Below are positions 3,122 through 60,622 of a DNA stretch of 64,000 bases, piece by piece. A program made the translations under genes and the position numbers. The stretch comes from an uncultured Pseudomonadales bacterium (GTDB taxonomy: Bacteria; Patescibacteriota; Microgenomatia; UBA1400; CAYNMC01): contig CAYPXO010000001.1 of assembly GCA_964414895.1 (NCBI GenBank), forward strand, positions 26,999-90,998, given 5' to 3'. The notes beneath the pieces are model-generated. The model did no database searches, was not told the DNA's origin, and saw only the letters and a list, made by a program, of their open reading frames with translations. Numbering within the stretch: the first letter of the stretch is position 1; the number at the start of each line of letters is the position of its first letter.

Positions 3122-3456
3122 ACAAAACAGAAAAAATAGCATTCGACGAATTAAGAGTGGCAGGCTACGAGGTCGAGCAGCCAATCAACAAGACCCTCAG
3201 AACGAAGCGGGGGTATATTACGCTCCGCCACGACCTTTGGGGGATTTGGGATTTTTGTGCGGTCAATAAAAAAGAGATCAGATTTATACAGGTTTCGGAA
3301 AAATACATGAGCCAGAAAACGAAAGCCGACCAACTGCGAATGATTGAATTCCCTAGACCGCCACACGCCAAAAAAGAATACTGGCGTTGGGATAAAAAGA
3401 AGGGCGATTTTATCATCGAAAAAATAGGAGGGGAGGTGAAGAATCATGGCAGATAA
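3118..3456 (+). CDS. hypothetical protein
   Basis: ORF trimmed to the ATG at 3118, which overlaps the upstream stop (ATGA). Confidence 0.4.
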   Translation: MNKTEKIAFDELRVAGYEVEQPINKTLRTKRGYITLRHDLWGIWDFCAVNKKEIRFIQVSEKYMSQKTKADQLRMIEFPRPPHAKKEYWRWDKKKGDFIIEKIGGEVKNHGR

Positions 3457-3604
3457 AAAACCTAAATATCACTTTGAAGGCAAGCGCAAAAACGCCAGGG
3501 GCAAGGAAGTCTATGTGGTCATGGAATTAAAAACAAACAAGATGCTAGAGCTGGACGAAAAGGCATTTAACAAAAAAGACAAAGCAGGGGAGGTGGAAAA
3601 ATAA
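3446..3604 (+). CDS. small hypothetical protein (52 aa)
   Basis: Not in the ORF track because it is under 60 aa. Preceded by GGGAGGTGAAG SD. Basic, Lys-rich. Confidence 0.35.
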   Translation: MADKKPKYHFEGKRKNARGKEVYVVMELKTNKMLELDEKAFNKKDKAGEVEK

Positions 3605-3608
3605 GCCT

Positions 3609-3872
3609 ATGAAAACCAGAAAACAACACCTACAAGCGATGGTCGAAAGCCTGGAGCAGGACTTAATCATTGGTGAAATCAATCAGGCTTTTATTAAGGG
3701 TCTCGATCCGAGCCAGCCATATGGCATCGGGCAAAAGACTAAAGCGGAAGCCCTCGCCGTTGAAGAAATAAACGAGAGAAAGCAGCGCAAATGTCTAGAG
3801 ATTGCAAAAAAACTACTTGCCAAAGAAGAAGCAGCAAACATTGAGGAAGGAGGTGATAAACATGCTAACTGA
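3609..3872 (+). CDS. hypothetical protein
   Basis: 87-aa ORF in the early string. Confidence 0.4.
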   Translation: MKTRKQHLQAMVESLEQDLIIGEINQAFIKGLDPSQPYGIGQKTKAEALAVEEINERKQRKCLEIAKKLLAKEEAANIEEGGDKHAN

Positions 3873-4020
3873 CAAACAAACAAAAAGGCTCGAAGAACTG
3901 CGCACCAAAGCAGGGCTAGACGAGAAGGAATGGGAGGAGCTGAGGAAGCTCGACAGATTGGAGGAGGGCGCAGCCAAGAAGGAGGCAGGAGAAGACGAGG
4001 AGGACAAGAGTGCTGAGTAA
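3862..4020 (+). CDS. small charged coiled-coil protein
   Basis: ATG at 3862 is preceded by AGGAGGTGATAAAC. The longer track ORF 3802.. probably over-extends the start. Confidence 0.4.
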   Translation: MLTDKQTKRLEELRTKAGLDEKEWEELRKLDRLEEGAAKKEAGEDEEDKSAE

Positions 4021-4128
4021 TCCTCTGAATCCTGGGGGCGGGAGGGCAGCGCCCCTGGGATTGAAAGGATTAAAACACATGACCAAAAACCTATTAAAAA
4101 ATCAAAAACTGAAAGGAGGTGAGAATCC

Positions 4129-4326
4129 GTGAAGCAAGTAGTGCGATGCGTAGGATGCAGCAAAATCGTAGGGCTTTATAAGACCTACAGCGTCCAAGTG
4201 ACAGAGACTCCGATTGTAAACGGCACACGAATGCCAGAAATAAAATATAAAGGCAGGATTTGCAAAGAATGCGCCCAGGGTGCAGGTTACAAAATCGGAA
4301 TCAAACATGAACCAAAAAAAAGCTAG
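4129..4326 (+). CDS. Zn-ribbon protein (CxxC...CxxC)
   Basis: GTG start preceded by AAAGGAGGTGAGAATCC. Motifs CVGC and CKEC. Confidence 0.45.
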   Translation: MKQVVRCVGCSKIVGLYKTYSVQVTETPIVNGTRMPEIKYKGRICKECAQGAGYKIGIKHEPKKS

Positions 4327-4459
4327 GTTGCTAAAGAAGCTGGCGAGAAGTCTGGGACTACCCTACAAGGTAATTAAAAAGCGATACCAGAGCTTTAATT
4401 CCTTACAGCGTGACGAAATGGCAAAAGAGCTAAAGCGGATTCAAAAAGCAAACCTATGA
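4307..4459 (+). CDS. small basic protein (50 aa)
   Basis: Unlisted short ORF MNQKKARLLKKLARSLGL... whose stop overlaps the next start (ATGA). Confidence 0.3.
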   Translation: MNQKKARLLKKLARSLGLPYKVIKKRYQSFNSLQRDEMAKELKRIQKANL

Positions 4460-4641
4460 AAAACACAAAACTAATCGAGCCAATACTGAGAGAAGACTAT
4501 GTCTCCCCTCACTTGAAAGAAGAAGCCCGCAAGCGGGAGATCGAACCCCTCCCGCCAGAGACAGAGGGTTTAAGTTGGGGGGAACGACTGTGGCTTTTTA
4601 TAGTGCGGGTGATTACTAAATTCTTAAGGAAATATGGTTAA
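4456..4641 (+). CDS. hypothetical protein
   Basis: 61-aa ORF translationally coupled to the following methyltransferase gene. Confidence 0.4.
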   Translation: MKNTKLIEPILREDYVSPHLKEEARKREIEPLPPETEGLSWGERLWLFIVRVITKFLRKYG

Positions 4642-5890
4642 CAAAACAGACTACCCGAAAATCGCAATAAGCACCCTGAGATTTGCCGAATACAATCCTA
4701 GGCAGATCACTAGGAGCGTGATCGAATCGCTTAAAAAATCAATGAAGCGGTTCAAGTGCGTCGTGCCGATAGTAATTAACACCTACAAAGGCAGGGGAAA
4801 TGTAGTAGTTGGTGGCGAAAAAAGAGTGCGGGCAGCAACCGAGCTAGGCTGGAAGGAAATCGAATACACCACAGTCAACATTCCCCTAGAAGACGAGAAG
4901 GCGCTAAACCTGGCATTAAACAAGATCGAAGACAAGTGGGACGATGCAAAACTGGCAGCCGTGGTGACCGACCTAGCCAAAAAGGACTTTGATTTATCAG
5001 TGACAGGATTCAACGAGGTGGAAATTAGCAACCTGCTCGACACTACAATGATGCTTAACCTCGAAGAAGAACCCTGGGACACGGAAAAAGAGCTGGCAAA
5101 AATAACCGAGCCGACCTCAAAACTCGGTGAGGTTTATCAGATCGGCGATCATCGGCTTATGTGCGGGGACGCCACCAAACCAGAGGATGTGGCGAAACTG
5201 ATGGACGGTAAGAAAGCGGACATGGTCTTTACTGACCCGCCCTACAATGTCGCTCATACCAGCAAGGAAAAGAAGGGTAAATTCCATACAGAAGAAGGCA
5301 CGATCCTTGGGGATGACCAGAGCCAGGAGGACTTCCGAGCTTTTACTCAAGCGTTTTTCAAAAACTACAATGAAATCCTAAAGCCAGGCGGGATAATTTA
5401 TGTCTGCACAGGCTACAGCTCCTACCCCCTGTTTTATTACCAGATGCTCAATGCAGGGTTTGTTTTTAGCTCGACGATAGTCTGGGTCAAACCAAGCTAT
5501 GCCATCGGTTGGGGGGATTATAAAAAGCAATACGAGCAGGTGATGCGAGGCAGGAGAAGGACTGGCAAAGCCAAAGGCGAGCCGATCCTCTACGGCTGGA
5601 GACAAGGAGAGCGCCATCAATTCGAAGGTGACAGAACCGAAAGCGATGTCTGGGAATTCCCCAGGAAGGCAATTACCGACATGGTTCACCCGACGGAAAA
5701 GCCAGAGTGGTTAATTATGAAAGCGATCAAAGGCGGATGCAGAGTCGGACAGCTAGTCGTCGATTTATTCGGCGGATCGGGAAGCACGCTGATGGCAGCA
5801 CACAAACTAAGCAGAGTCAGTTATTTAATGGAGCTAGACCCCAAGTTCTGTGATTTGATCAGAAAGAGGGCGGAAAGGTTAAAAATCTAG
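4634..5890 (+). CDS. ParB-like nuclease N-terminal domain fused to a DNA methyltransferase (DPPY motif; N6-adenine or N4-cytosine)
   Basis: N-terminus matches the ParB-N fold (GGEKRVRAATELGW). MTase motif IV is VFTDPPYN and the FGGSGST motif is present. Confidence 0.8.
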   Translation: MVNKTDYPKIAISTLRFAEYNPRQITRSVIESLKKSMKRFKCVVPIVINTYKGRGNVVVGGEKRVRAATELGWKEIEYTTVNIPLEDEKALNLALNKIEDKWDDAKLAAVVTDLAKKDFDLSVTGFNEVEISNLLDTTMMLNLEEEPWDTEKELAKITEPTSKLGEVYQIGDHRLMCGDATKPEDVAKLMDGKKADMVFTDPPYNVAHTSKEKKGKFHTEEGTILGDDQSQEDFRAFTQAFFKNYNEILKPGGIIYVCTGYSSYPLFYYQMLNAGFVFSSTIVWVKPSYAIGWGDYKKQYEQVMRGRRRTGKAKGEPILYGWRQGERHQFEGDRTESDVWEFPRKAITDMVHPTEKPEWLIMKAIKGGCRVGQLVVDLFGGSGSTLMAAHKLSRVSYLMELDPKFCDLIRKRAERLKI

Positions 5891-5970
5891 CCTTGTCGAC
5901 GCCACCAGATCGATTCTGTGGGGCGTTTGACAGGCGGGTGGGACATAGAACCACCCAAAAACAATAAAGA

Positions 5971-6132
5971 ATGTCAAAAAGTAAAAAAAGGCGCAATTTA
6001 TCAAAGCGAAGACGCAAAAAACTAAGAAAACTTAAAAGAAAACAGCAAAAAGGTATCCAAGAAGACATTAAAAAGCTGGTGATCGCCAGAATTAAAACGA
6101 TGCCAGACAATCTGAGAATTAGTATTGGCTAA
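5971..6132 (+). CDS. small highly basic protein (53 aa)
   Basis: Unlisted ORF MSKSKKRRNLSKRRRKKLRKLKRKQQKG...; possibly DNA-binding. Confidence 0.3.
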   Translation: MSKSKKRRNLSKRRRKKLRKLKRKQQKGIQEDIKKLVIARIKTMPDNLRISIG

Positions 6133-6137
6133 AAACT

Positions 6138-6767
6138 ATGGCAAAAAAACAAATAAAACCAACCAAGAAAACTGTCGACAAAAGTCCACAAGTGCCTACG
6201 GAAGATAAACCTCCCAAACTGTCGACAGAGAAAATGAAGGGCGAAACCAATCGCCACTTTTTAGCATGGTTACTTTACTGCCAAGCTGGGAGTCTTAGAA
6301 AAACTTTAGCTGTGTGGGATAAAGCACTGGGCATAGAAGGAGAAGTCGATTACAGAAAGCTAGGGAAGAAACCTTCCTTAAAAACTCTTAACAGGTGGTC
6401 AATGAAATACCGCTGGGGCGAAAGGGATGAGCTGCGGTTCGAGGAGACTCTCGCAGGTTTGAAAAAAGAAACGATCCGTATTGACAAGGAGCGCAAAGAC
6501 AGAGTCGCTCAGCTTTTCAAAATTGCAATGAACAAGAAACTCAGACAACTCAATATCCCCCAGGGAGAGGCAGTGAGCGACACCCTGCTTAATTACCTGT
6601 GGAGGATGCACCGAGTCGAAATGGGGTTGCCAACAGACTACAGCAAGCATGATGTCTACACGCCGATCAGGGAAGAAGACCAACAGCCATTGACACCAGA
6701 AGAAACTGTGCTAAGCCAAAAAATTACTCAGTTAGAAAAAGAACACAATGACAAAATCAACCAGTAA
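6138..6767 (+). CDS. putative terminase small subunit
   Basis: Called from its position immediately upstream of, and overlapping, the terminase large subunit, and from its size (209 aa); no diagnostic motif. Confidence 0.4.
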   Translation: MAKKQIKPTKKTVDKSPQVPTEDKPPKLSTEKMKGETNRHFLAWLLYCQAGSLRKTLAVWDKALGIEGEVDYRKLGKKPSLKTLNRWSMKYRWGERDELRFEETLAGLKKETIRIDKERKDRVAQLFKIAMNKKLRQLNIPQGEAVSDTLLNYLWRMHRVEMGLPTDYSKHDVYTPIREEDQQPLTPEETVLSQKITQLEKEHNDKINQ

Positions 6768-8310
6768 TAAATACCAACGATTAAATATCCTAACCTGGAT
6801 TCGGGAAAACAATATTAAGAACGAGCGTGGCGAGCCGATAGAATTCGAGCAGCACCGCTTCATGCAGGATTTATATGCCGATGTCGCCCCGATTCAGGTC
6901 GTCAGAAAAGGGTCGCAGATCGGCGCAAGTTTAATGGAAATCCTCAAGGTGCTTCATGCAGCCCGCTTCTGGGGCATCAACCAGATTTATACCCTTCCGA
7001 CCAGCGATGATGTCTTCAAATTCGTGCCAGGCAAAGTTAATCGAATCATCAGATTAAATCCCTGCATCAAGGAAGGAATCCCTCCAAAAAGTGTAGACGC
7101 CATTGAACAAAAGCAGATAGGCAAAAGCTGGCTTTACTTCAAAGGGACATTCACCGAAAGAGAAGCTATTATCTTAACCTCAGATCGCAATATTCACGAC
7201 GAGCTGGACAAGTCAAACCCAGATGTGGTGCGAGACTACCTCTCCCGTATGAGCTACTCAAAAATTAGAAGCCAGCACTACTTCAGCACGCCCACGATCC
7301 CCGACTTCGGCATTGACAAGCTATTCCAAGACTCAGACCAGAAGCACTGGCGCTTTAACTGCCCCCACTGCACCTACCGCCAGCACATGGACTGGGAGAA
7401 GAATGTCGATGAGAAGCGGGGCATTTATGTCTGCCAGAAATGCAAAAAGGAAATCACGCCAAAAAACATCAACAAATACGGCAGCTGGGAGGCACGCTAC
7501 CCAGGCAAACCAGTATCTGGCTACTGGATCAGCCAGATGAACTGCCCCTGGCGCACCGCAGCCGACCTAATCAAAGAGCGTGAAGACGCTGAAGACGACA
7601 CCTATTTTTACAATTTCATCCTGGGGCTGCCTTACCTCTCAGCCGAGCAGCGCATCCCAGCCAGCCTATTCCTGCGCAATCTGACAGAGGCAGAAGCCGA
7701 AGCAGCCGAAGACTACAATGTGATGGGCATTGACACAGGCTCAGGCTCAGGCAAAGGCAACCATGTCATCATCGGTAACCAGAAGGGAATCTTCTGGATG
7801 GGCATTTTAACCGACAAGCCAGACAAAGACCGTTGGGAGCAGATCGCCGAGCTTATAAAATTCTATGACATCAGGGTAACGATCATCGACGGACAGCCTT
7901 ACACTGTGGAAGCCCTGAGTCTAGCCAGGCAATTCCCCTACCGAGTCTACCTCTGCTGGTTCAAAGACGACCCCAAAATGCTCGAAATCGTCCGTTTTTT
8001 TGACGAAGAAGAAGGCAAGGAAAAAGACCTAGAAGACGAAATCAAAGTGCTTGCCTCAAGAACCAGAATCATCGACGACACAATAACCGCTCTCCACAAG
8101 CACGAAATCAAGTTCGCCATGAAGCCAGACAGCCCCACCTTCAAAATGCTAATCAAGCATGCCCAGACAATGTATGCCAGATCGGTGACGGATAAGTTAG
8201 AACAGGTAAAAAGAGAGTGGGCAAGCACAGGAGCAAATGACTTCTTCCTGGCGCTGATTTACTGGCACATCGGACTTAAAAAAAGAAATAAATATGAACC
8301 AAACAAATAA
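6748..8310 (+). CDS. terminase large subunit
   Basis: 520 aa. N-terminal ATPase region with Walker-A-like VRKGSQIGAS. C-terminal nuclease-like region (GIDTGSGSGKGNHVIIG; IDGQPY). C4 Zn motif CPHC...CQKC. Lies upstream of the portal gene. Confidence 0.75.
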   Translation: MTKSTSNKYQRLNILTWIRENNIKNERGEPIEFEQHRFMQDLYADVAPIQVVRKGSQIGASLMEILKVLHAARFWGINQIYTLPTSDDVFKFVPGKVNRIIRLNPCIKEGIPPKSVDAIEQKQIGKSWLYFKGTFTEREAIILTSDRNIHDELDKSNPDVVRDYLSRMSYSKIRSQHYFSTPTIPDFGIDKLFQDSDQKHWRFNCPHCTYRQHMDWEKNVDEKRGIYVCQKCKKEITPKNINKYGSWEARYPGKPVSGYWISQMNCPWRTAADLIKEREDAEDDTYFYNFILGLPYLSAEQRIPASLFLRNLTEAEAEAAEDYNVMGIDTGSGSGKGNHVIIGNQKGIFWMGILTDKPDKDRWEQIAELIKFYDIRVTIIDGQPYTVEALSLARQFPYRVYLCWFKDDPKMLEIVRFFDEEEGKEKDLEDEIKVLASRTRIIDDTITALHKHEIKFAMKPDSPTFKMLIKHAQTMYARSVTDKLEQVKREWASTGANDFFLALIYWHIGLKKRNKYEPNK

Positions 8311-8518
8311 ACCAAAACCAATCACGCTCACGAAGGCAGAGCGGGAAATCATTGAAAATATCCGCCAGGTTAACTACGGCAGAGTGGTAATTTTCATTGA
8401 CAACGGCAAACCCTTCCGCAAAGAGATCGTCGCCCAAAAGAGAATCGGCAAAGAGGAGGGCGGAAGTGCTGGGCAGTATATCACCAAGCCAAAAGGAGGT
8501 GCAGGCGTAGAAATATGA
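8294..8518 (+). CDS. hypothetical protein
   Basis: 74-aa ORF overlapping the terminase large subunit stop. Confidence 0.4.
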   Translation: MNQTNKPKPITLTKAEREIIENIRQVNYGRVVIFIDNGKPFRKEIVAQKRIGKEEGGSAGQYITKPKGGAGVEI

Positions 8519-8688
8519 TGTTGAGAACCTACCCTACCAAAAAGAGCTGCGAGGAGGCATGCTTCCGCAGCCCAGTCCATAGGACGCCAGTCAAACTTAA
8601 GAATGGGCGCTGGGCAGCGATGACCTTCGACGAGCAACAAGAGTATGAGCGTAGATTCAAGAACCGCTTGACTTCTGTTAAAAAATAG
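8515..8688 (+). CDS. small hypothetical protein (57 aa)
   Basis: Unlisted ORF preceded by AAAAGGAGGTGCAGG SD. Confidence 0.3.
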   Translation: MMLRTYPTKKSCEEACFRSPVHRTPVKLKNGRWAAMTFDEQQEYERRFKNRLTSVKK

Positions 8689-8703
8689 AGATAATGTAAC
8701 CAA

Positions 8704-8901
8704 ATGGTAAGTAATAAGCAAGTCAAACCAGGCAAGCTACTCAAACTAACCGAGGTTAGCAAGATGCTCAATGTTCACCCCAACACACTTCGGAAATGGG
8801 ATGAAAAAGGAATCCTCAAAGCGATCCGCTTCGGGCAGAGGCAAGACAGGCGCTACCGCAAAAAAGACATAGAAAAGTTAATTGAGAGGAGGCAGAAATG
8901 A
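8704..8901 (+). CDS. excisionase/MerR-type HTH DNA-binding protein
   Basis: KLLKLTEVSKMLNVHPNTLRKWDEKGIL matches the excisionase-family HTH pattern. Confidence 0.6.
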   Translation: MVSNKQVKPGKLLKLTEVSKMLNVHPNTLRKWDEKGILKAIRFGQRQDRRYRKKDIEKLIERRQK

Positions 8902-9107
8902 AAGCAGCCCTAGAATTTATCGGCGAAACTGTAGGTTACTGGCTCTGGCTGGCAGGCTTTACCCTGGCACTAGGGGTTATAGGGCTGGGGATGGAGACAG
9001 ATGTAGGCTGGGCAATCATGATAATTTTTACAATAGCCTTGCTCATTAAAATCGCATACGGAATGATCGGCAAAGAGAAAAGCAACACCTATGACAAAAG
9101 CAAATAA
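8898..9107 (+). CDS. small membrane protein
   Basis: Two predicted TM helices. Confidence 0.4.
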   Translation: MKAALEFIGETVGYWLWLAGFTLALGVIGLGMETDVGWAIMIIFTIALLIKIAYGMIGKEKSNTYDKSK

Positions 9108-9291
9108 AGAATCACCAACCAGAAAAGAAGCCAAGCGGATACTCGGAGAATTAGCCTGCTTTATTTACCGCTCAGACGCCCACTACGACAGGCAAAACTA
9201 CGAGAGCGACCTAGACATTATCGAAGATTTAATAAATAAAGCACAGAAAGGAGGTGAGAAAGAAAAATGGCAAGACACACTAAAATCTTAA
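9091..9291 (+). CDS. hypothetical protein
   Basis: 66-aa ORF. Confidence 0.35.
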   Translation: MTKANKESPTRKEAKRILGELACFIYRSDAHYDRQNYESDLDIIEDLINKAQKGGEKEKWQDTLKS

Positions 9292-10082
9292 TGATAGGGT
9301 TTGTAGTTTTGATTGTAGGCATGGGAGTATTCGCCACTCTCAGAAAGGGAACGGCAAGTAACGAGGTTAGCCCAACGCTCCCCGATCCAAAAACGGAAAG
9401 AGTTCAAGAGCTGGAAGGCATCATGGCAGCCAATCCTAACAAGGATTCCCAAGAGTATCAGGCAGCCAGGCAGGAGTATTGTCTCCTAAAATCCAGACCA
9501 GCTACAGAAAGAGAGCAAGCAGTCGCCAATGTTAAGAAATTCCTGGGGATGCCAGATGTGCCTGTAGAATTTACCTGCGGAAGGGGCAATTCAGAGTATT
9601 ACACGGCAGCAGGGTTCAGCCTCAAGGTTGATCCTGAAACCAACTACATCATGGAAGTAGGCGAAGCAGAGCGCAGGTGGGGAACGAAAGAAGATGGCAC
9701 TCGCTGGTTTGACCCGATGCCAGAATACGATTACACAGTCCGCTACACCACGCCAGAGGCAATCAAACCAGTCGCTGAAGAATTCATGCGCAAGCACCAG
9801 GACATCCTGGGAGTGGACATCGACCAGATGACCTACGAATTTAGAGGCACGAAGCCTGGCAATTTCTTCCTTAAGTGGCATGACCAAGACTACCCGTCGG
9901 TGGAAGAACACGAAGAGTGCGGAGATGTTGACCCTGACGCAATGCCGATTGAAAACCGCTCGGGCGCTTACCAAAATGACCAAGGGGTTTGGTGCATTAA
10001 AAGCAAAGTAACCAGATACCCCTCGGTTTACATGACGATCACTCAGGGCGGGCAGGTAATCGTCTACAGTAAAGACAGCTGA
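9267..10082 (+). CDS. membrane-anchored hypothetical protein
   Basis: AAAGGAGGTGAG SD. N-terminal TM helix followed by a 240-aa predicted extracytoplasmic domain. Confidence 0.5.
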   Translation: MARHTKILMIGFVVLIVGMGVFATLRKGTASNEVSPTLPDPKTERVQELEGIMAANPNKDSQEYQAARQEYCLLKSRPATEREQAVANVKKFLGMPDVPVEFTCGRGNSEYYTAAGFSLKVDPETNYIMEVGEAERRWGTKEDGTRWFDPMPEYDYTVRYTTPEAIKPVAEEFMRKHQDILGVDIDQMTYEFRGTKPGNFFLKWHDQDYPSVEEHEECGDVDPDAMPIENRSGAYQNDQGVWCIKSKVTRYPSVYMTITQGGQVIVYSKDS

Positions 10083-10104
10083 GGATAAACCAGCCAGGCA
10101 AAGG

Positions 10105-10130
10105 TCTAGCCCCAGAAAAAGGGGGCTAGA
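10105..10130 (+). terminator. GC-rich stem-loop (TCTAGCCCC-AGAAAAAG-GGGGCTAGA) downstream of 9267..10082
   Basis: Perfect 9-bp inverted repeat. No strong U-tract. Confidence 0.35.
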
Positions 10131-10140
10131 TCAGTTCAAT

Positions 10141-10169
10141 TTGATAAATTTTTAATAAAAGCCTATAAT
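10141..10169 (+). promoter_or_regulatory. sigma70-like promoter TTGATA-17-TATAAT driving the moron cassette
   Basis: Near-consensus hexamers with 17-bp spacing, 23 nt upstream of the 10192 start. Confidence 0.55.
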
Positions 10170-10191
10170 TCAGGCAGAATCAGGAAAACGA

Positions 10192-11181
10192 ATGAAAAGA
10201 CTATTTGAAGGCAAAACGAAACTGATTACAATTCCCCTTATAGGGATTTTATCCCTTGCATTCCTCCCCATTGCCCTAGGGCTAGGACTGGGCTGGCTGG
10301 TTTATAAAAAGGTCGGCAGTCCGAAATTAAAATATTCCCTGCTGACAGTGATCGCCCTTTTTACCCTATTCACAGGCACTGCTTGGGTCTCAGCGATAAC
10401 CTCCCCCAGCAAGCCAGAATCAAAGCAAGAGCAAACTGCACAAGCCACCCCAACCCCTGAAGCCGAAACAGCAGCTGTAGAAATGACTCAAGAACCATCA
10501 CCCACTCAGGAATCGACATCAACCACAACGACCCCCGCAAATATGCAGACCGCTAAGGTGACCAGGGTCATCGACGGCGACACAATCGATGTCTCCTTTG
10601 ACGGAAAAACAGAAAGAATTAGGATTATAGGAATCGACACACCAGAGACAGTCGACCCCAGAAAACCAGTGGAATGCTTTGGGCAAGAAGCGTCAGCAGT
10701 TGCAAAAGAACAACTTACAGACGAAACAGTGCAGCTTGAATCCGATCCAACTCAAGGTGAAAGAGACAAATACAATCGGCTCTTGAGGTATGTGTGGATG
10801 GATGACGGCACTGTTGACTTCGGCAAACTGATGATCGCCACAGGTTACGCTCACGAATATACTTACAATCTCCCCTACAAATACCAAAAAGAATATAAAC
10901 AAGCCCAGAAGGACGCAGAAGAAGGCAAAAAAGGGCTGTGGGCTGATGATGCCTGTCCTCCACCCACTGAAAAACCCGCCACCGCACCAACCCAACCATC
11001 TTCAGGGGGAGGGTCGTGCAAATACTCCTGCACCAGTCCAGACAGGGACTGCGCCGATTTTTCAACCCATGCCGAAGCACAAGCGTTTTTTGAATGTTGC
11101 GGGTTTACCGCCACCAATGACCCGATGAGGCTAGACTCAGTCGGAATTGGAAACGGCATCGCCTGCGAATCATTACCATGA
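10192..11181 (+). CDS. membrane-anchored micrococcal (SNase-like) nuclease with C-terminal Excalibur Ca-binding domain
   Basis: Two N-terminal TM helices. SNase motifs (VIDGDTIDV; RIIGIDTPE; YNRLLRYVW). The C-terminal DRDCADF...GNGIACE fits the Excalibur pattern. Confidence 0.75.
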   Translation: MKRLFEGKTKLITIPLIGILSLAFLPIALGLGLGWLVYKKVGSPKLKYSLLTVIALFTLFTGTAWVSAITSPSKPESKQEQTAQATPTPEAETAAVEMTQEPSPTQESTSTTTTPANMQTAKVTRVIDGDTIDVSFDGKTERIRIIGIDTPETVDPRKPVECFGQEASAVAKEQLTDETVQLESDPTQGERDKYNRLLRYVWMDDGTVDFGKLMIATGYAHEYTYNLPYKYQKEYKQAQKDAEEGKKGLWADDACPPPTEKPATAPTQPSSGGGSCKYSCTSPDRDCADFSTHAEAQAFFECCGFTATNDPMRLDSVGIGNGIACESLP

Positions 11182-11522
11182 AGAAACTAGCCATAGCCAT
11201 TTTTATTGCCACAATCCTCTTGATACGGGGAGTCAGCCCAGCCCTTGCTAGACAAGGATGCTGTTCTCATCACAAAGGAGTTTGCGGTTGCCATTGTTGC
11301 GACGGCACGCCCCTCTCCGCAAAGTGCGCTCCTTACTACCCAAGCTGCAACAAGGCAAGCACCAGCACCTACAAAGCCCCTCAAAAAGAGGAAAAGAAGT
11401 GGTATCAAAGTGGGTGGACATATGTGATCGGCGGGCTTGGACTCTGGATGGGAGGCGCTTGGGTAAAAGAGAAAATTGACGAAAGAAGAAAAAGAAAAGA
11501 AGAAGAAAAAAACCATGAGTAA
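11178..11522 (+). CDS. Cys-rich type-I membrane protein (signal peptide, GCCSxHxGVCGC..CCDGT motif, TM helix, basic tail)
   Basis: Signal peptide ..ALA. Eight Cys within 35 aa. TM helix WTYVIGGLGLWMGGAWV followed by a KR-rich tail. Confidence 0.55.
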   Translation: MKKLAIAIFIATILLIRGVSPALARQGCCSHHKGVCGCHCCDGTPLSAKCAPYYPSCNKASTSTYKAPQKEEKKWYQSGWTYVIGGLGLWMGGAWVKEKIDERRKRKEEEKNHE

Positions 11523-11982
11523 AAACATTGTAAAACTAGCAACAATTCTGATATTTACCCCTCTGTTTTTATTTGCGTCAACTGCAAACATAGAAGCCAG
11601 AAGGGGATGTTGCTCTTGGCATGGTGGGGTTTGTGGCTGTGATACCGATGTTGGCAGGCAAGTTTGCTGCGACGGCACATACAGCCCCAGCTGCGGATGC
11701 GCTTATATTCCTAAGACCATGCCTACGCCAATGCCGACAAAAAAACCAACTCCCACCCCCACCAAGAAACCGACACCAGAGCCTACGAAAATAAGCACTC
11801 CAACCCCTCAACCAGCCGTTCAAACAACGACTAGCGACTCAGGCAGCTCAGACGACAGCACGATAGGCTGGCTAACACTGGCAGCGCTGGGCGGGGGCGG
11901 ATACTGGTTATACAAACGAGCTAAAAATAAAAAGAAGCCAGAGGAAACAAATAACTCTGAGCCAACAAACCAAAATGGATGA
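11515..11982 (+). CDS. paralogous Cys-rich type-I membrane protein with Pro/Thr-rich linker
   Basis: Same architecture and Cys spacing (RRGCCSWHGGVCGC...CCDGTYSPSCGC), then a PT-linker, a TM helix and a basic tail. Start trimmed to the ATG at 11515. Confidence 0.55.
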   Translation: MSKNIVKLATILIFTPLFLFASTANIEARRGCCSWHGGVCGCDTDVGRQVCCDGTYSPSCGCAYIPKTMPTPMPTKKPTPTPTKKPTPEPTKISTPTPQPAVQTTTSDSGSSDDSTIGWLTLAALGGGGYWLYKRAKNKKKPEETNNSEPTNQNG

Positions 11983-12223
11983 AGAAAACAACGGCTTCGG
12001 TGGCATCATCGGAGTAATAATTTTTATCGTTATAATTTACTTTGCCTTCAAGTGGATTGGTGGCTGGGGCAAATACGAAGGCATGAGTGCAGAGGAATGG
12101 GCAGACGAAGCATATTACTGGGAAGACAGATACAATGAGTTTAGGGGGTGCGTGGAAGATTTCGACAGCATGGACATACGAGATCAGATCGACTACGGCG
12201 GGGTTTTTTATTACTGCGAATAA
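11975..12223 (+). CDS. small membrane protein
   Basis: One TM helix; last gene of the cassette. Confidence 0.4.
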   Translation: MDEENNGFGGIIGVIIFIVIIYFAFKWIGGWGKYEGMSAEEWADEAYYWEDRYNEFRGCVEDFDSMDIRDQIDYGGVFYYCE

Positions 12224-12228
12224 AGCAC

Positions 12229-12258
12229 TTGCATTTTTATTTTCAACTTTGTTAGAAT
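12229..12258 (+). promoter_or_regulatory. sigma70-like promoter (TTGCAT-18-TAGAAT) upstream of the portal gene
   Basis: Hexamers with 18-bp spacing; followed by the conserved 22-mer box and a hairpin. Confidence 0.5.
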
Positions 12259-12277
12259 GAATACAGTAAAGTAAACC

Positions 12278-12346
12278 GCCTAACGAATTGATCGGGGCTT
12301 GGGTTTCTCTATTCACAAGAGTAGGAAAACCTAAGCCCCGTTTTTA
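12278..12346 (+). terminator. conserved 22-mer GCCTAACGAATTGATCGGGGCT followed by hairpin GGGGCTTGGGTTT...AAACCTAAGCCCC and a U-tract; terminator/attenuator directly downstream of the promoter
   Basis: 13-bp stem with one G-U pair, then GTTTTTATTT. A second copy of the same architecture lies at 14296-14372. Confidence 0.5.
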
Positions 12347-12361
12347 TTTGAGGAAAAACTT

Positions 12362-14233
12362 ATGCCAAAAGTCAAAGAAGAAAAAATCACTCAAACAGCC
12401 CGCTATGATCCGCCAGAAGCCGATGAGAAATTGATCGAGAAGTGGAAAAAAAGATTTAAGCGAGCAAAAGACTTCCGTGATCCATACCAGGCGAAGTGGC
12501 TGAGACTTTATCAGCTATACCGAGCCTATCAAAATAAGAAAAACTACGCTTACAATACCCGCCTGATGCCCCCGATTGCCTTTGAAATTGTCAAAACAGT
12601 CGTCTCAAGACTGGCAACAGCAAAGCGCCAGACCAGAATTATACCCAGAGAGAAAGCCGACCTTAAATCCCCAGCCCTTGATTCCTGGGACAACCTGGTG
12701 AATTATGACTTTGACATTATAGAACTGGCAAAGAAGCTCCCCAACTGGATCGAAGCCTCCACCCTCTACGGCAACGGCATCATCAAATTGGCGTGGAAGG
12801 TGCTGACCACCACCGACGATGATGGCAAAGCAACTACCATCTATGACGACCCCAACATGAGCCTGAGCGACCTGTGGGACATCCTCCCCGCCCCTGAAAC
12901 CACCGACTTACAAGAAGACTGCCCTTGGCTCATCCACCGCATCGTCAAACCCAAAGCCAGGATTGTAAAAGAGGAAAAAGCCAGAGGTGAAGGCAAGATT
13001 TATAAGAACCTGGAATTTGTAGAGGACAAGAAAGTCGAGGATTGGAAAAAAGAGCGCTACGAAATCAATGCCAAAAAGATGTCTCAGATGGGCGGAGGGG
13101 AAAAGGAAAATGAGAGCGGAGAGAGTAAAATCCTGCCCGAAAAAAGCGAAGGCGAAAAGCAGGTAGAGATTTGGGAATGCTGGGACTGGGAGGAAGACAA
13201 ACTGGTTGTAATTATGAACCAGGAAGTCCTCACCAGAGATGATGAGAACCCTTACCTGGCAATCAATGGCGGGCGGATTTATGTTGACTTGCCAGACATG
13301 CCACTCCTCTGGGAATTCTGGGCAACAGGACACATCGAGCCAGTCGAAACCACCATCCTGGAGATTGCCGACCTCAGAAACCAGAGAATGGACGACATCA
13401 TTTTAATGCTCGACCCTGTGGTTAAAATCAGAAAAGACTCAGGCATTACTAAAAACGACATTGTCTTTGCACCAGGCGCAGTCTGGGAGCTGAGAAAAAT
13501 GACCGATGCTGTGATTGAAAGACCACCTGAAATAAGCCTCATGGGAGTAAACGAAGACAAGCTAATGCGAGACGAAATCAGCCGAACCCTGGCGCTTGGC
13601 GAGTATATGCAGGGCATGCCCCAGTCCAGCCAAGAGCCTCTGGGTAAAGTAGCAATGCTTCTAGGACAGAGCAACCTGCGCCTAAGCATGAACGCCAGCA
13701 ACATTGCAGTAGCCCTGACCCAGGTGGCAAACATTCTAATCGAAATGAACCGAGAATTTATCGATAAAGACAAACTCTATCGAGTCGTCGGCGAGGAGGT
13801 CGAATTCAAGGAATTTAAGAAAGAAGATAAAAAGGTCAAAGTCGACGCCATCGTTAAAGTTGACCCAGTAATTCCCCCAGACCAGACAGCCAGAATCAAC
13901 CAGATTTTGATGCTTTACGACAAGCTGATCGCCCAGGACAAACCCGATCCCAAAGACCCAGAGGACATCAAACGCTGGCTCAAGAGAAAAAGAACCCTGC
14001 AGAAGATGCTCCTGGAAGAGCTAGACCTTGATCAGTATATCGAGCTTTTGTTAGGGAAAGATGAAGAAGAAGGCAAAGAGACGACAGAAACACCCGCCGT
14101 TGCCCCTGTGTCACCCGCTAAAGAGGCTTTGCCAGCGCAGTCGGCTGGGTATAATGCCCCCGCAAACCAAGCAGGCGCAGGAATCAGAAGGGTGCTGCAG
14201 CAAATTCCTTTGCTCGGTAGAATGGTGGGATAA
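12362..14233 (+). CDS. portal protein
   Basis: 623-aa protein in the canonical position after terminase and before the head module. Acidic C-terminal tail. The assignment rests on size and position rather than on a diagnostic motif. Confidence 0.6.
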   Translation: MPKVKEEKITQTARYDPPEADEKLIEKWKKRFKRAKDFRDPYQAKWLRLYQLYRAYQNKKNYAYNTRLMPPIAFEIVKTVVSRLATAKRQTRIIPREKADLKSPALDSWDNLVNYDFDIIELAKKLPNWIEASTLYGNGIIKLAWKVLTTTDDDGKATTIYDDPNMSLSDLWDILPAPETTDLQEDCPWLIHRIVKPKARIVKEEKARGEGKIYKNLEFVEDKKVEDWKKERYEINAKKMSQMGGGEKENESGESKILPEKSEGEKQVEIWECWDWEEDKLVVIMNQEVLTRDDENPYLAINGGRIYVDLPDMPLLWEFWATGHIEPVETTILEIADLRNQRMDDIILMLDPVVKIRKDSGITKNDIVFAPGAVWELRKMTDAVIERPPEISLMGVNEDKLMRDEISRTLALGEYMQGMPQSSQEPLGKVAMLLGQSNLRLSMNASNIAVALTQVANILIEMNREFIDKDKLYRVVGEEVEFKEFKKEDKKVKVDAIVKVDPVIPPDQTARINQILMLYDKLIAQDKPDPKDPEDIKRWLKRKRTLQKMLLEELDLDQYIELLLGKDEEEGKETTETPAVAPVSPAKEALPAQSAGYNAPANQAGAGIRRVLQQIPLLGRMVG

Positions 14234-20705: not shown

Positions 20706-21125
20706 ATGCAAAAAAAAGATTTCATTTTCAAAAGACCAGAAACAGGCAAGACCGAGATCGTCAAGCGGGAACGCTGGCGATGGGTAGTGCATTATAAAGA
20801 CGGCACAAAACTTCACCAATTCGATGGCGAGGCGGGCATTTTTCACCAATTCAGAGAGATCGATCAAAGCAGAGTCGAGTCCTTCCAAATGGTCTCGGAC
20901 AAAAACCCAGAGGGCATCAACCTTTTAATTCCCCCAAACGGCGCAGACTTGATCCATTTTTACCGCAATGTAAGGCTGGCAGGCAGAAAAGATTGGATCA
21001 AACTATACTTCTTCGGCTGGAAAATCAAAGACCAAAGAGGCAGAAGCCTCCAAAAGCTAATTTGTATTTACCCCAACGACAAAATCGCATTGGTAGAAGA
21101 AGCAGAAGGAGGTGAGGCTGCGTGA
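20706..21125 (+). CDS. hypothetical protein
   Basis: 139-aa ORF overlapping the next start. Confidence 0.4.
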   Translation: MQKKDFIFKRPETGKTEIVKRERWRWVVHYKDGTKLHQFDGEAGIFHQFREIDQSRVESFQMVSDKNPEGINLLIPPNGADLIHFYRNVRLAGRKDWIKLYFFGWKIKDQRGRSLQKLICIYPNDKIALVEEAEGGEAA

Positions 21126-23710
21126 TTCTGGAGATTTTAATTAACACTGACGATGGCGAAGAAGACTACGATACAACTTGGTATCCCAACGGCTACTCCG
21201 CTAACCGAACCACAATCGGTCATGACGGCTCAGGAAGCTGCGATGCAGGCTTGTTATTTGATAATTCAGGTATTGCCGAGGCAGCCAGTGTCCTCAGTGC
21301 CAAAATAAGAGTAAAGTGCTCTGGCAACTCAACCAAAAGACCGACCCTGAAAATAAGAGGAATTCTGCAAGCCGACCCCGCAACCTGGGCGCAGGCAACC
21401 AGACCATCAACCAGACCCAAGACTACCGCATTTGTAGACTGGGATATAGCTGCAGACTGGGTGTTGAACACCTGGTATGAGTCCCCAGACATTACCGCCA
21501 TCATCCAAGAGATCGTCAACCAATCAGGCTTTGCAGGAGCAATCGCCCTAGTGATCGAGGACGACGGCAGTCCAAGCGGAGATTACGAGCTAATCTGGGA
21601 CTACAACAACGCTGCTGCCGATGCGCCAGAGTTGGTGGTAACTCTAGGATCAACAACAAAAATCCAGAAATCCCTCACCTATATTCTCGAACCGCAATTA
21701 GCCACGATCAATCTCCCAAAACAGCTTCAGTATGCGATTAACTCCACGCCTGCAGCGATTGAGAAAGAGCTGAGATATGTTATTTATCTGGGGGACACGA
21801 CGATCCAAAAAGCCCTTAAATACTGCATCAAAACCGAACCAGCAGCGATCACAAAATCCCTCAAGTATGCGATTAAAACTACCCCAGCAGCGAGCACAAA
21901 AGGATTACGATATTCAGTCATTCCCAACCTGCTGATCCAAAAAAGCCTGCAATATGCAATCAAGACAGAGCAGGTAATCCAGAAAATATTGCGATACTTT
22001 ATTAAGCCCGAAGAACCGCCAACAGAAAAGAGCAGAAATCAGGTCTTGAAAGTCGCCAGGATCGTCGCCGAGAATATCGATGATGGCAGAGAGGACAGCG
22101 ACAACAACTGGTATAAAGACGGCAACGCCAGCCACCTCATCACAATGGGCAACCTGGACGGCAAGACCCACACAGGAGCATTCCGCTTCCGCCATGTCGA
22201 CATCCCTCGCAATGCCAAGATATTCTTCGCCAGACTAAAACTGCGCTGCGCTTACACCGACGCCACTGACTTCACCACCAAACTAAGGATCAAGGGCATT
22301 AAAGAAGCCGATGTTAAACCATTTAGCAGCACCAACAAACCAAGCAGCAAAACAAAGACGGCAGACAGCGTCTCCTGGGAGATTTATAAAAAGTGGAACA
22401 TCAACGAGTGGGTGCAAACCCCTAACCTGCTTTTGATCGTGGAGGAGTTGGTGCGCCAGAGCCAGTGGAAGGCAGGCAATGCAATGGCGTTTGTGATTGA
22501 GGATGACGGCAGTGTAGCTGGCAACTCCAAAACCTGTTGGGACAGCTCAAGCGGGGTCGAGGATAAAGCCGAGCTGGAGATTTATTACTTTGATAAAGAA
22601 ATCAATGTCTCCTTCCTCCAGCTTAATGACCGAGACGGCGAAGAAGACTACAGAGATTTAGACCCACCAGACAACGCCTGGTATCCCGACGGCTGGGGCA
22701 ACAATCGAATCACCCTGGGAGACGACGGTGTGCATGAGCCAGAGTCGCCCAACGACGCAGGTTTTATCTTCTCCCCTGTTCAAATTCCTAAAGGAGCAAA
22801 AATCATCTCGGCTCGCATACTACTCACCGAAGATTCCCAAAACAATAACATGTGCAACTGGATTATAAAAGGATTCGCCGAAGACAATGCAGCTCCATTC
22901 AGTGGCGACGGCTCAAACCGCCCTTCAACCAGGACTAAAACCACTGCTAAAAAACAATGGTTTATAGGGCATGTGGAGGCAGGCATTTTACTCGGTGACC
23001 ACTGGACAGCCCAGAGCGTCTACGAATCACCAGAAATCAAGGAAATCATTCAGGAAATAGTGGATCGGGCAGGCTGGGTTGGAGACTCAAGCCAGAAGCT
23101 GGGCTTGGTGATTGAAAGCCACCACAGCCAGAGCGTCAAATACATCGTCGACTACAGCAAAGGAGGGGCAGGAAAATGGGCAGCGCAACTGATAATCGCC
23201 TGGCAATACATCAGGAGAACGACCACTGTTAAAAAGGATTTGGCAGCCTATGACAAAGCCAATTACCCAGAGTTTATTATCGTCCACCACTCAGCCACAG
23301 CCAGGGATACTACCCTATTTATTACCATCAAAAACGCCCATATAGGATATGGCTGGGAAGACATCGGCTACCACAAGTGGGTTTGTGGGGCAGCAGACGG
23401 AGATGGTATACTGAAACAAGGTAGACCAGACAACGAAATCGGAGCGCATTGCGACGACAACAAGATGAACTATCGCTCCATCGGAGCGTGTGTATGCGGA
23501 GACTTCCACTCGACAGGACTGAATGAAACCCCGACAGCAGCACAGTTAGCCACACTACAGCAACTCCTCGACGACACTCGAAAGCAGCGAGGTATTCCCA
23601 AAGAAAGAGTATTAGGACACGGCGAAGTTCCTGGTGCAGCCACCGACTGCCCAGGAGATAACCTGTTGCCTTATATCGTTAATTACCGAAACACAGGTAG
23701 TTTGACCTGA
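21122..23710 (+). CDS. virion-associated lysin or receptor-binding protein: three copies of the unrecognised ~185-aa domain, short tandem peptide repeats and a C-terminal amidase_2 (PGRP-type) N-acetylmuramoyl-L-alanine amidase
   Basis: The three domain copies lie at about 21122-21660, 22060-22600 and 22610-23200. The repeats xKxLxYxIKTxPAAx lie at 21660-22020. The amidase_2 region (23260-23700) carries VHHSAT, GYHKW, GAHC and TDCPGDN zinc-ligand motifs. Confidence 0.65.
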   Translation: MILEILINTDDGEEDYDTTWYPNGYSANRTTIGHDGSGSCDAGLLFDNSGIAEAASVLSAKIRVKCSGNSTKRPTLKIRGILQADPATWAQATRPSTRPKTTAFVDWDIAADWVLNTWYESPDITAIIQEIVNQSGFAGAIALVIEDDGSPSGDYELIWDYNNAAADAPELVVTLGSTTKIQKSLTYILEPQLATINLPKQLQYAINSTPAAIEKELRYVIYLGDTTIQKALKYCIKTEPAAITKSLKYAIKTTPAASTKGLRYSVIPNLLIQKSLQYAIKTEQVIQKILRYFIKPEEPPTEKSRNQVLKVARIVAENIDDGREDSDNNWYKDGNASHLITMGNLDGKTHTGAFRFRHVDIPRNAKIFFARLKLRCAYTDATDFTTKLRIKGIKEADVKPFSSTNKPSSKTKTADSVSWEIYKKWNINEWVQTPNLLLIVEELVRQSQWKAGNAMAFVIEDDGSVAGNSKTCWDSSSGVEDKAELEIYYFDKEINVSFLQLNDRDGEEDYRDLDPPDNAWYPDGWGNNRITLGDDGVHEPESPNDAGFIFSPVQIPKGAKIISARILLTEDSQNNNMCNWIIKGFAEDNAAPFSGDGSNRPSTRTKTTAKKQWFIGHVEAGILLGDHWTAQSVYESPEIKEIIQEIVDRAGWVGDSSQKLGLVIESHHSQSVKYIVDYSKGGAGKWAAQLIIAWQYIRRTTTVKKDLAAYDKANYPEFIIVHHSATARDTTLFITIKNAHIGYGWEDIGYHKWVCGAADGDGILKQGRPDNEIGAHCDDNKMNYRSIGACVCGDFHSTGLNETPTAAQLATLQQLLDDTRKQRGIPKERVLGHGEVPGAATDCPGDNLLPYIVNYRNTGSLT

Positions 23711-38029: not shown

Positions 38030-38085
38030 GGAGTTAGCTGCCCCTTGAAGGGGAAGATTAGAAGCAAGAAACCTTCGAGAACTCC
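38030..38085. other. putative prophage-host attachment junction inside comM
   Basis: Both the GC-content shift and the divergence of the comM reading frame from the conserved ...LFLDELSEF continuation occur here. Confidence 0.35.
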
Positions 38086-60479: not shown

Positions 60480-60554
60480 CGGGGTATGGTCTAGTGGCTA
60501 TGATAGGCGCATGGGGTGCGTCTGACCCCAGTTCGATTCTGGGTACCCCGACCA
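60480..60554 (+). tRNA. tRNA-Pro (anticodon GGG)
   Basis: Acceptor stem CGGGGTA/TACCCCG with C1-G72 (characteristic of bacterial tRNA-Pro). Anticodon stem-loop GGCGC-AUGGGGU-GCGUC. T-arm CCCAG-TTCGATT-CTGGG. Discriminator A; CCA encoded. Confidence 0.75.
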
Positions 60555-60622
60555 TCCGACTCTCCCGACGTAGCGTCGGGATCGCTCAGGGCAAGCAAAA
60601 GGGAATAAAAAGGAGGATAAAG

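Follow-up and report, generated by a model that had tools for sequence, protein, structure and literature searches.

Exported nucleases carried by prophages or by integrative and conjugative elements (ICEs) are established agents of interference with DNA acquisition. YokF of the Bacillus subtilis prophage SPbeta, a membrane nuclease of the staphylococcal nuclease (SNase) type, is reported to lower transformation (PMC4774983) and to block nanotube-mediated plasmid transfer (bioRxiv 10.1101/2025.10.26.684598). IdeA of a Vibrio ICE, Dns of the Campylobacter element CJIE1 and the streptodornases of streptococcal prophages are likewise accessory exported nucleases on integrated elements, and for these a part in countering incoming DNA has been proposed or shown. 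Both the DNases of mobile elements, such as IdeA and CJIE1 Dns, and the insertion of elements into comM count as anti-transformation tactics (PMC4774983). Here we describe a four-gene nuclease cassette in a prophage of the Candidate Phyla Radiation (CPR, Patescibacteria). It lies in a 64,000-nt stretch of contig CAYPXO010000001.1 (assembly GCA_964414895.1, positions 26,999 to 90,998), hereafter the window, to whose positions all coordinates refer unless a relative is named. The cassette encodes an SNase nuclease, two cysteine-rich proteins (CysA and CysB) that share an eight-cysteine domain, here termed Cys8, and a small membrane protein of 82 aa. With somewhat better than even confidence we read it as a portable moron-type operon of a temperate phage in comM, which builds a cell-surface nuclease complex and probably limits incoming DNA. 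No description of an exported anti-DNA nuclease in a CPR (Patescibacteria) phage was found in the literature.

The nuclease by itself is a new example of a known thermonuclease family and is functionally akin to YokF. Both are prophage-encoded nucleases of the TNase fold, an envelope location being predicted for the window enzyme. YokF (chromosomal paralog YncB) has a signal peptide and a 'TNM' domain, whereas the window nuclease has two hydrophobic segments and an Excalibur-like C-terminus; unlike YokF, it also comes with three further cassette membrane proteins, two of them with Cys8, and with a CPR host. IdeA, CJIE1 Dns and the streptodornases differ more, having other nuclease folds, being secreted instead of tethered and having no reported Cys8 partners. 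The moron concept stems from lambdoid phages (Juhala/Hendrix). Like a lambdoid moron, the cassette is an extra unit with promoter- and terminator-like flanks that stands between genes adjacent in relatives and is present or absent among close relatives of a temperate phage; lambdoid morons are one gene, in contrast to the four of the cassette, which moreover lacks a compositional contrast. What is new is a block seen to move as one piece at a cargo hot spot of a CPR phage, the pairing of its nuclease with two anchored Cys8 proteins, and the recognition of Cys8 as a Dis2/YdcA-like family associated with extracellular nucleases.

The cassette as a mobile block

The cassette interval (10083-12361) is bounded by the gene of a 271-aa membrane protein (9267-10082) and the portal gene. 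Its four plus-strand open reading frames (ORFs; Table 1) overlap by 4, 8 and 8 nt and are translationally coupled. A second copy was found on a contig from a different sequencing run, L156 (relatives are given as loci or contigs numbered L, family proteins as numbers with P), where positions 3329-5564 match window positions 10123-12345 with 87% identity over 2,245 bp in blastn and nothing aligns on either side. The same four genes are present there (333, 114, 155 and 82 aa). The left edge of homology lies within the upstream hairpin, in its 3' arm (10123), the right edge at the end of the terminator U-run (12345), and the flanks comprise a replication-initiator-like gene on the other strand and ORFs without assignment; a portal gene is absent. 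To judge by this alignment, the 2.2-kb block 10123-12345 moves as a unit. Just upstream of the block, L156 has some 35 nt similar to the 271-aa gene at its 3' end (GGQVIVYDNNT-stop), which suggests that this copy originated in a window-like context. Between the two copies the ratio dN/dS is 0.09 for the nuclease, 0.08 for CysA, 0.15 for CysB and 0.04 for the 82-aa protein, which is 97.6% identical; the membrane anchors are kept, while the Pro/Thr linker varies freely. All four genes are, by these ratios, under purifying selection.

The first-pass annotation, made from the letters of the window, had described a self-contained cassette inserted between the terminase and portal genes and consisting of a stem-loop, a near-consensus TTGATA-17-TATAAT promoter and four genes. 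All of these elements are present, the promoter as a promoter-like site, and the recurrence of 10123-12345 as one unit with unrelated flanks in L156 lends the self-contained character the strongest support that sequence can offer. The placement holds as well, except that the cassette is not the sole content of the gap: six more ORFs (8294-10082) lie between the large terminase subunit gene (TerL) and the cassette. A portal promoter/terminator unit had also been proposed, of which the hairpin with its U-run is strong and the promoter is not; the latter (TTGCAT-18-TAGAAT) has a weak -35 element, stays below the threshold of the promoter scan and is partly kept upstream of the portal gene in relatives.

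Promoters and terminators were called by E. coli-type consensus rules. The 9 kb scanned hold 15 promoter-like sites (8.7 +/- 2.5 in shuffles), and the TTGATA-17-TATAAT site is among the two best. It is kept in L129, L154 and L156 although the surrounding non-coding DNA has diverged, an AGGAAA ribosome-binding site lies between it and the nuclease ATG, and we infer that it acts as a promoter in the CPR host. The upstream hairpin lacks a proper U-run; its stem is kept in L129 and L154. The terminator-like hairpin at the right edge, 3' of the cassette, is the sole strong terminator candidate. The 142-nt stretch that contains it folds at -45 kcal/mol, against -26 +/- 3.5 in shuffles (z = -5.4), and the hairpin is kept in seven relatives regardless of upstream content, being also part of a conserved portal leader.

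A portal-based scan yielded 22 related viral contigs, onto which the window genes were mapped. The distance between TerL and portal gene is approximately 38 bp in L147 and L148, 0.1 kb in L149, 0.3 kb in L150, 0.6 kb in L145, 3.6 kb in L142, 4.05 kb in the window, 4.6 kb in L130 and L143, 4.8 kb in L154, 5.0 kb in L137, 5.2 kb in L129, 5.8 kb in L140 and 8.6 kb in L138 and L139. Since its size ranges from 38 bp to 8.6 kb among relatives, the gap is, on this mapping, a hypervariable cargo hot spot, and the cassette occupies only part of it. A profile search of all ORFs of the 22 viral contigs recovered the nuclease in one (L129) and the Cys domain in none. Two sister prophages have the hairpin, the promoter-like site and a nuclease of 70-72% identity at the same place: L129, with 86% identity in the portal, and L154, which lies on a Candidatus Daviesbacteria contig of 1.1 Mb. 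Downstream of the nuclease follow two minus-strand genes in L129 and an unrelated 128-aa protein in L154. As the Cys genes are missing from both although the elements before them are retained, the cassette is modular, not indivisible.

Other envelope-directed cargo was seen at the hot spot, namely a YceG/MltG-domain protein in L154 (7019-8158) and an equivalent-looking 329-aa protein in L129 (5818-6807). L130 and L143 each contain two copies of a homolog of the 271-aa membrane protein, for which the window sequence (9267-10082) gave no family match.

At the right end of the prophage a tyrosine integrase adjoins comM, which breaks off at position 309 of the 499-position profile, for which reason the element is, from this junction, placed in comM. 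The first 38 kb or so have a GC content of 0.44-0.50 and the remainder one of 0.31-0.42, with a drop from about 0.48 to about 0.34 past the comM fragment. Host genes downstream of the junction encode MiaA, MiaB and an AI-2E family transporter. No record matched the host MiaA exactly; the best named MiaB relatives come from the Microgenomates and Patescibacteria groups, and the host is best classed as a Microgenomates-type CPR bacterium. Phage and host sequences both occur in run SRR14802572.

On an unrelated CPR contig, L152, comM is truncated at the same place (10460-11431, profile positions 3-313 of 499) and stands beside dprA. This contig has its own SNase and Cys8 operon about 2 kb from the truncated gene, and that copy may lie within a comM-inserted element. 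A recurrent comM-targeting insertion site in CPR genomes is suggested by the two truncations.

Table 1. Positions of the cassette, its flanking signals and selected prophage and host features in the window.
Feature	Position	Strand	Description
Large terminase subunit (TerL)	6748-8310	+	phrog_675 E=7e-96; Pfam GpA_ATPase
Upstream hairpin	10103-10132	+	11-bp stem, after the 271-aa gene; left edge of mobile block; terminator-like site scan and fold
Sigma-70-like promoter site	10141-10169	+	TTGATA-17-TATAAT, 11/12 consensus positions
Nuclease, 329 aa	10192-11181	+	N-terminal hydrophobic segments; Pro/Thr/Glu-rich linker; SNase (aa ~119-254); Excalibur-like Cys-rich C-terminus (aa ~275-327)
CysA, 114 aa	11178-11522	+	Signal peptide; Cys8 subtype A (aa 25-57, RQGCCSHHKGVCGCHCCDGTPLSAKCAPYYPSC); linker; Gly-rich C-terminal helix; basic tail
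CysB, 155 aa from ATG	11515-11982	+	Signal peptide; Cys8 subtype B (aa 29-62, RRGCCSWHGGVCGCDTDVGRQVCCDGTYSPSCGC); Pro/Thr linker; C-terminal anchor; basic tail
82-aa protein	11975-12223	+	One N-terminal transmembrane segment (aa ~8-28); acidic aromatic-rich tail with two Cys
Weak promoter-like site	12229-12258	+	TTGCAT-18-TAGAAT, read by eye upstream of portal gene
Terminator-like element	12293-12350	+	21-bp hairpin (12293-12340), then GUUUUUAUUU; right edge of mobile block
Portal protein	12362-14233	+	PHROGs portal and head-tail adaptor families; SU10_portal below Pfam cut-off
Tyrosine integrase	36837-37925	-	Pfam Phage_integrase E=2e-29; Xer-like NCBIfam matches; right end of prophage
comM (YifB family) 5' fragment	38058-39011	-	TIGR00368 profile positions 2-309 of 499 only

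The nuclease and the Cys8 family

The SNase assignment of the first-pass annotation is confirmed by Pfam (PF00565, residues 142-252), with 83.2 bits against a cut-off of 21 (E=2e-23); the match to staphylococcal nuclease in the PDB has an E-value of about 2e-18. In this enzyme D21, D40 and T41 are Ca2+ ligands, and R35, E43 and R87 are catalytic. Compared with structures 2F0W and 2F0U, the window protein keeps the equivalents of D21, R35, D40, T41, E43, Y85, R87, Y113 and Y115 without exception; as all Ca2+ and catalytic residues are among them, an active Ca2+-dependent enzyme is expected. Hydropathy gives two hydrophobic N-terminal segments (residues 9-38 and 48-69), in agreement with the two transmembrane helices that the annotation had named. 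The loop between them (KKVGSPKLK) is strongly basic, and by the positive-inside rule this lysine-rich loop would place the nuclease domain outside the membrane. The second segment, which ends in V-S-A, might be a signal-anchor or a cleavable signal peptide.

An Excalibur domain had also been assigned to the nuclease. Homology of its C-terminus to true Excalibur domains is indeed evident: BLASTP against the Excalibur part of P0027 gives E=2e-8, jackhmmer also recruits PF05901 proteins, and the pattern CxDFxTxxEAQxFF...DPxxLD...G.ACE of the window nuclease aligns with bona fide domains of PF05901 nucleases. The assignment as such holds only in part. The region stays below the Pfam cut-off, with no PF05901 match in the window C-terminus even at E=10 and 17.2 bits (cut-off 22) for the L129 ortholog, and the DxDxDG calcium loop has degenerated to D-S-V-G-I-G-N-G, its position reading LDSVGIGNGIACE in the window nuclease and LDRDKDGVACE in P0027. 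The C-terminus is accordingly best described as an Excalibur-like region whose calcium site has degenerated. Homologs that match the nuclease over its full length are common among metagenome-assembled genomes of Microgenomates, and SNase plus Excalibur is an architecture often seen in them; homologs in mobile elements occur in L154, L155 and possibly L152.

CysA and CysB are paralogs, as proposed at first reading (BLASTP E=5e-11, 39% identity over 64 aa), and share the motif GCCSxHxGVCGC...CCDGT...SC. Their supposed C-terminal transmembrane segments fared less evenly: AlphaFold2 models CysA residues 79-113 as a helix with pLDDT (predicted local distance difference test) above 90, and both anchors are kept in L156, although the segments are Gly-rich and fall below 1.6 on the Kyte-Doolittle scale. 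Foldseek of the CysA model against the PDB returned one meaningless match (E=7.8). Pfam, NCBIfam and PHROGs gave nothing above threshold for the Cys proteins, the weak matches being PRK10040 and, as the only one in PHROGs, phrog_6000 (function unassigned, E=0.006). The annotation had also considered that they might match a known structural virion family; PHROGs yielded no structural match, and the domain is fused to nucleases in cellular genomes. The 82-aa protein has no homolog in any locus fetched besides the same cassette (L001, L156).

Several candidate assignments of the Cys proteins were rejected. Matches to DUF7302 and PARP were dismissed as low-complexity. Lipoprotein anchoring was discarded on account of the R-Q/S-G before the first Cys, which is unlike a lipobox, and a sortase signal in CysB on account of a TIGR01167 match below cut-off and the lack of an LPXTG motif.

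Searching with a profile built from the two window domains gave 505 proteins at E<=0.01; every one is annotated as hypothetical, and none has a Pfam model for the Cys8 region. An exhaustive search extended this to 1,280 clusters (50% identity) at E<=1e-3, or 526 at E<=1e-10. The genome scan gave 362 loci, distributed over many CPR phyla, DPANN, anaerobic methanotrophic (ANME) and Methanoperedens archaea, Acidobacteriota, Desulfobacterota and others, and the viral scan 38; tblastn with the CysB domain found two 'hypothetical proteins' of Helicobacter prophages in 50,697 phage records and none in 72,556 plasmids. Two subtypes are distinguished, A (CysA) with GCCSHHGGVCGCxCCDGTxLSAxCAPYYPxC and B (CysB) with RGCCSHHGGVCGCxxGRxxCCDGTLSPSCGC, which hhalign joins with 99.7% probability.

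The first-pass annotation had recognised no family for the cysteine motif and had recommended a profile search. As far as Pfam is concerned this stands; the search itself revealed kinship with Dis2 and, more distantly, with YdcA. The Cys8 profiles match one solved structure, PDB 7MUC chain AN, Legionella Dis2 (Lpg0823), both lobes of which were aligned; the E-value is 3e-10 with the two window domains, 4.5e-10 with the subtype-B profile and 0.005 with the subtype-A profile alone. The NCBIfam YdcA models (PRK10040) are matched by intermediate family members at about 3e-9 and by CysB at about 1e-3, with scores of 17-20 bits, far under the equivalog cut-offs of 93-168. The identity of the YdcA sequence used in these comparisons is backed by its 147-bit match to PRK10040.1-1 only. 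By these profile comparisons, Cys8 is a real, broad family homologous to the Dis2 lobes and distantly to E. coli YdcA. Neither a description of the family nor a report on YdcA function was found in the literature.

Dis2 is a small exported protein of two lobes with five disulfides, all of its cysteines being disulfide-bonded (PMC8486379). Its likeness to CysA and CysB lies in the core GCCSxxGG...C...G-R-x-V-C-x-D-G...S..C, homologous to each lobe. Dis2 has tandem lobes with six and four Cys, lacks a membrane anchor and serves structurally in an outer-membrane complex, whereas CysA and CysB each have a single 8-Cys domain on a C-terminal anchor. Dis2 is also part of a type IV secretion system, genes for which were not seen among the window ORFs scanned. 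YdcA, itself uncharacterised, is a small signal-peptide protein with the same core pattern, and unlike CysA and CysB it has fewer cysteines and no anchor. By analogy with Dis2, the Cys8 cysteines are inferred to be disulfide-bonded in an exported protein. A metallothionein or Zn-ribbon reading was considered less likely, since all cysteines of Dis2 are disulfide-bonded. In P0121, P0126, P0143, P0147, P0149 and others (190-330 aa) the Cys8 profile matches twice, a tandem duplication reminiscent of the two-lobed Dis2.

Nucleases recur as partners of Cys8 in cellular genomes. In a descriptive count by Pfam, for which no matched background was drawn, fusions among 82 genome-derived members comprised SNase (11), Exo_endo_phos (2), Endonuclease_1 (1) and Excalibur (2), next to the non-nuclease partners fn3 (6), TPR and Kelch. 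SNase also led among the partners in another sample, this one of 120 representatives (6), followed by SH3_3 (4) and G5 (2). The order in the fusions is signal peptide, Cys8, linker and SNase, with a C-terminal anchor in some (L054), and L071 combines Cys8, Excalibur and SNase in a single polypeptide. Gene pairs of an SNase followed at 4 nt by a Cys8-anchor protein are found in L009, L010 and L152. A membrane protein precedes these pairs; it was read as OB-fold-like from its sequence and matched no family. In L155 a nuclease of 62% identity is followed by an analogous protein with signal peptide, YHYH_alt domain, anchor and basic tail.

Two neighbours of such nucleases were noted in passing. 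The YHYH_alt protein of L155 (10025-10876) has an anchor-plus-basic-tail architecture like that of CysA and CysB, and in L152 (6128-7000) a 290-aa repeat protein starting HRSGCHRWHSCPSD has a Cys/His-rich N-terminal module beside the SNase gene. Surface nuclease operons may use interchangeable Cys/His-rich partner modules.

Clustering of the neighbours of 118 Cys8 loci revealed no universal partner gene; near viral subtype-B genes an integrase and a CI-like repressor were found. A conserved, secreted subtype-B Cys8 protein of 91 aa stands in the lysogeny module of the related prophages L101, L103, L105, L110, L111, L113, L115 and L127 (~5824-6099 in each). On its upstream side a CI-like repressor and a metalloprotease are encoded, and an integrase of the tyrosine or serine type follows 0.4-1.1 kb downstream. 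Its immediate neighbour is a conserved protein of 287 aa without assigned function.

The proposed function and its alternatives

The cassette proteins are proposed to work together because Cys8-nuclease fusions and gene pairs recur. In the mechanism we favour, the nuclease would be tethered to the lysogen and face outward, and CysA, CysB and the small membrane protein would assemble with it at the cell surface. These partners would dock the nuclease or handle its substrate, filling in trans the role that the fused domains have in cis, and the complex would cut nucleic acids outside the lysogen membrane. The likeliest payoff would be destruction of incoming DNA, including that taken up in natural transformation, which can delete prophages, and possibly that of competing mobile elements. 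Insertion into comM would serve the same strategy against DNA entry, and nucleotide salvage would be a by-product. Blocking of incoming DNA was ranked first because the phage already disables comM, and because mobile-element DNases and comM insertions are documented anti-transformation tactics.

If this reading is correct, the conflict between mobile elements and transformation would extend to a major uncultured radiation, the CPR, in one cultured lineage of which (Saccharibacteria) natural transformation has been shown. The block also offers a clean example of cargo exchange bounded by hairpin and terminator at a phage hot spot. The Cys8 family spans bacteria and archaea and is tied to Dis2, solved and functionally opaque, and to the orphan YdcA; SNase as the top identifiable Cys8 partner, together with two other nuclease folds, suggests what Dis2/YdcA-like proteins might bind. 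A more far-reaching and decidedly tentative proposal is that Cys8 is an extracellular module docking nucleases to nucleic acid or to a DNA-transport structure on the cell surface, which would make the cassette, with its two Cys8 versions and tethered SNase, a 'DNA-entry gatekeeper' that stops transformation together with the comM insertion. If true, this would provide an initial lead to what Dis2 does in the Legionella Dot/Icm system and to the role of E. coli YdcA.

A number of observations weigh against a portable surface-nuclease operon. On the genomic side, the operon lies between the packaging genes and on the same strand, so that late co-transcription is possible, and in a CPR host a match to the sigma-70-type consensus is no more than suggestive. 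The GC content of the cassette (0.47-0.49) lies within that of the phage (0.44-0.50), whereas a moron would be expected to show a compositional contrast. The evidence for integration comes from a single junction, the remainder of comM falling outside the window, and phage and host sequences stand on separate short Logan contigs. As to the proteins, the membrane topology throughout the cassette derives entirely from hydropathy and the positive-inside rule, and the Cys8 core of the AlphaFold2 model of CysA, computed from a 121-sequence alignment, is unusable (pLDDT 50-63). The partnership itself is loosened by the sister prophages L129 and L154, which have the nuclease without Cys genes, by subtype-B genes standing alone between a CI-like repressor and an integrase in proteobacterial-type prophages, and by the approximately 80% of Cys8 family members without nuclease linkage. 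An obligatory nuclease-Cys8 complex is doubtful because such stand-alone Cys8 genes and nuclease-only sister prophages exist; judging from these gene contents, a physical complex is not required for either part.

A nutritional operon is the first alternative. In this case the surface nuclease would mainly digest environmental DNA and RNA to feed nucleotides to a host unable to make them, the benefit being growth of the lysogen and later replication of the phage, and any block of DNA entry would be incidental. The host would suit such a role, being of the Microgenomates type within the CPR, whose bacteria are stated to lack nucleotide biosynthesis (PMC10633639). Full-length homologs of the nuclease are widespread in Microgenomates genomes as well, and CPR operons join the OB-fold-like membrane protein (read from sequence, no family match) with SNase and Cys8. 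However, the cassette has no nucleoside or nucleotide transporter, phosphatase or 5'-nucleotidase, DNA uptake was unnecessary for nucleotide supply in the one CPR species tested (PMC10633639), and the presence of several nuclease homologs in mobile elements (L154, L155, possibly L152) fits conflict better than housekeeping. We regard this explanation as unlikely.

To the same degree unlikely is that the Cys8 proteins act independently of the nuclease, as factors that modify the envelope or exclude superinfection by masking or blocking a surface structure, the cassette then consisting of two cargo modules side by side. The occurrence of the nuclease without Cys genes in L129 and L154 speaks for such independence, and so do the lone subtype-B genes between CI-like repressor and integrase, a classic position for lysogenic conversion or exclusion; the homolog Dis2, too, builds an envelope-spanning machine and is not a nuclease partner (PMC8486379). 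Against it stand the overlaps between the four genes and their transfer as a set in L156, the first rank of SNase among fusion partners in two independent samples, and the recurrence of pairs of SNase followed by Cys8 in other contexts.

Distinctly less probable is a role in the lytic cycle, in which read-through with the late genes would let the nuclease clear host or matrix DNA at lysis and the virions disperse, as proposed for some prophage DNases. The orientation of the operon, between the terminase and portal genes and parallel to them, would permit this, as would the upstream hairpin without a proper U-run and the location of the only strong terminator downstream of the cassette. The nuclease gene has its own conserved promoter-like element, however, a membrane-tethered extracytoplasmic enzyme, as predicted here, cannot reach the host chromosome before lysis, and in L156 the block sits beside a replication-initiator-like gene, away from structural genes. 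That the four are ordinary backbone genes of the phage family and no acquired cassette is scarcely credible, for although they do not stand out from the phage in GC content and the nuclease has the same position in three prophages (window, L129, L154), they are absent from 21 of the 22 portal relatives, terminase and portal genes stand side by side in L147 and L148, and other sequences flank the block in L156.

The portal leader and other features of phage and host

The portal gene is preceded by a leader composed of the weak promoter-like site, an invariant CCGCCTAACGAAT box, the 21-bp hairpin and a U-run that stops about 15 nt before the ATG. It was located at 12229-12361 in the window, 9863-10003 in L129 and 10556-10696 in L154, and also 5' of the portal gene in L130, L131, L134 and L141, and it is retained whether the cassette or a divergent helix-turn-helix gene stands upstream. 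Its layout resembles a promoter-proximal terminator and suggests antitermination control of the late operon. Rfam recognised no family in the whole window at gathering thresholds; the region 9900-12500 gave chance-level matches only, and the leader was unmatched.

The contrast in GC content between prophage and host is unusual for a resident temperate phage, and an assembly chimera is possible. On the host side, ARAGORN predicted a tRNA-Pro(GGG) at 60480-60554, which overlaps the start of an ORF (60494-61162) and has no counterpart at the Rfam gathering score. The structural region of the phage includes a 1,907-aa protein (28616-34339) with an LPD38 'large polyvalent protein' domain and an 862-aa protein (21122-23710) with Amidase_2 at its end, likely a tail-associated lysin. 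A fusion of a ParB N-terminal domain with an N6_N4 DNA methyltransferase (4634-5890) is encoded just 5' of the small and large terminase genes and is 63-81% identical in relatives with the same gene order.

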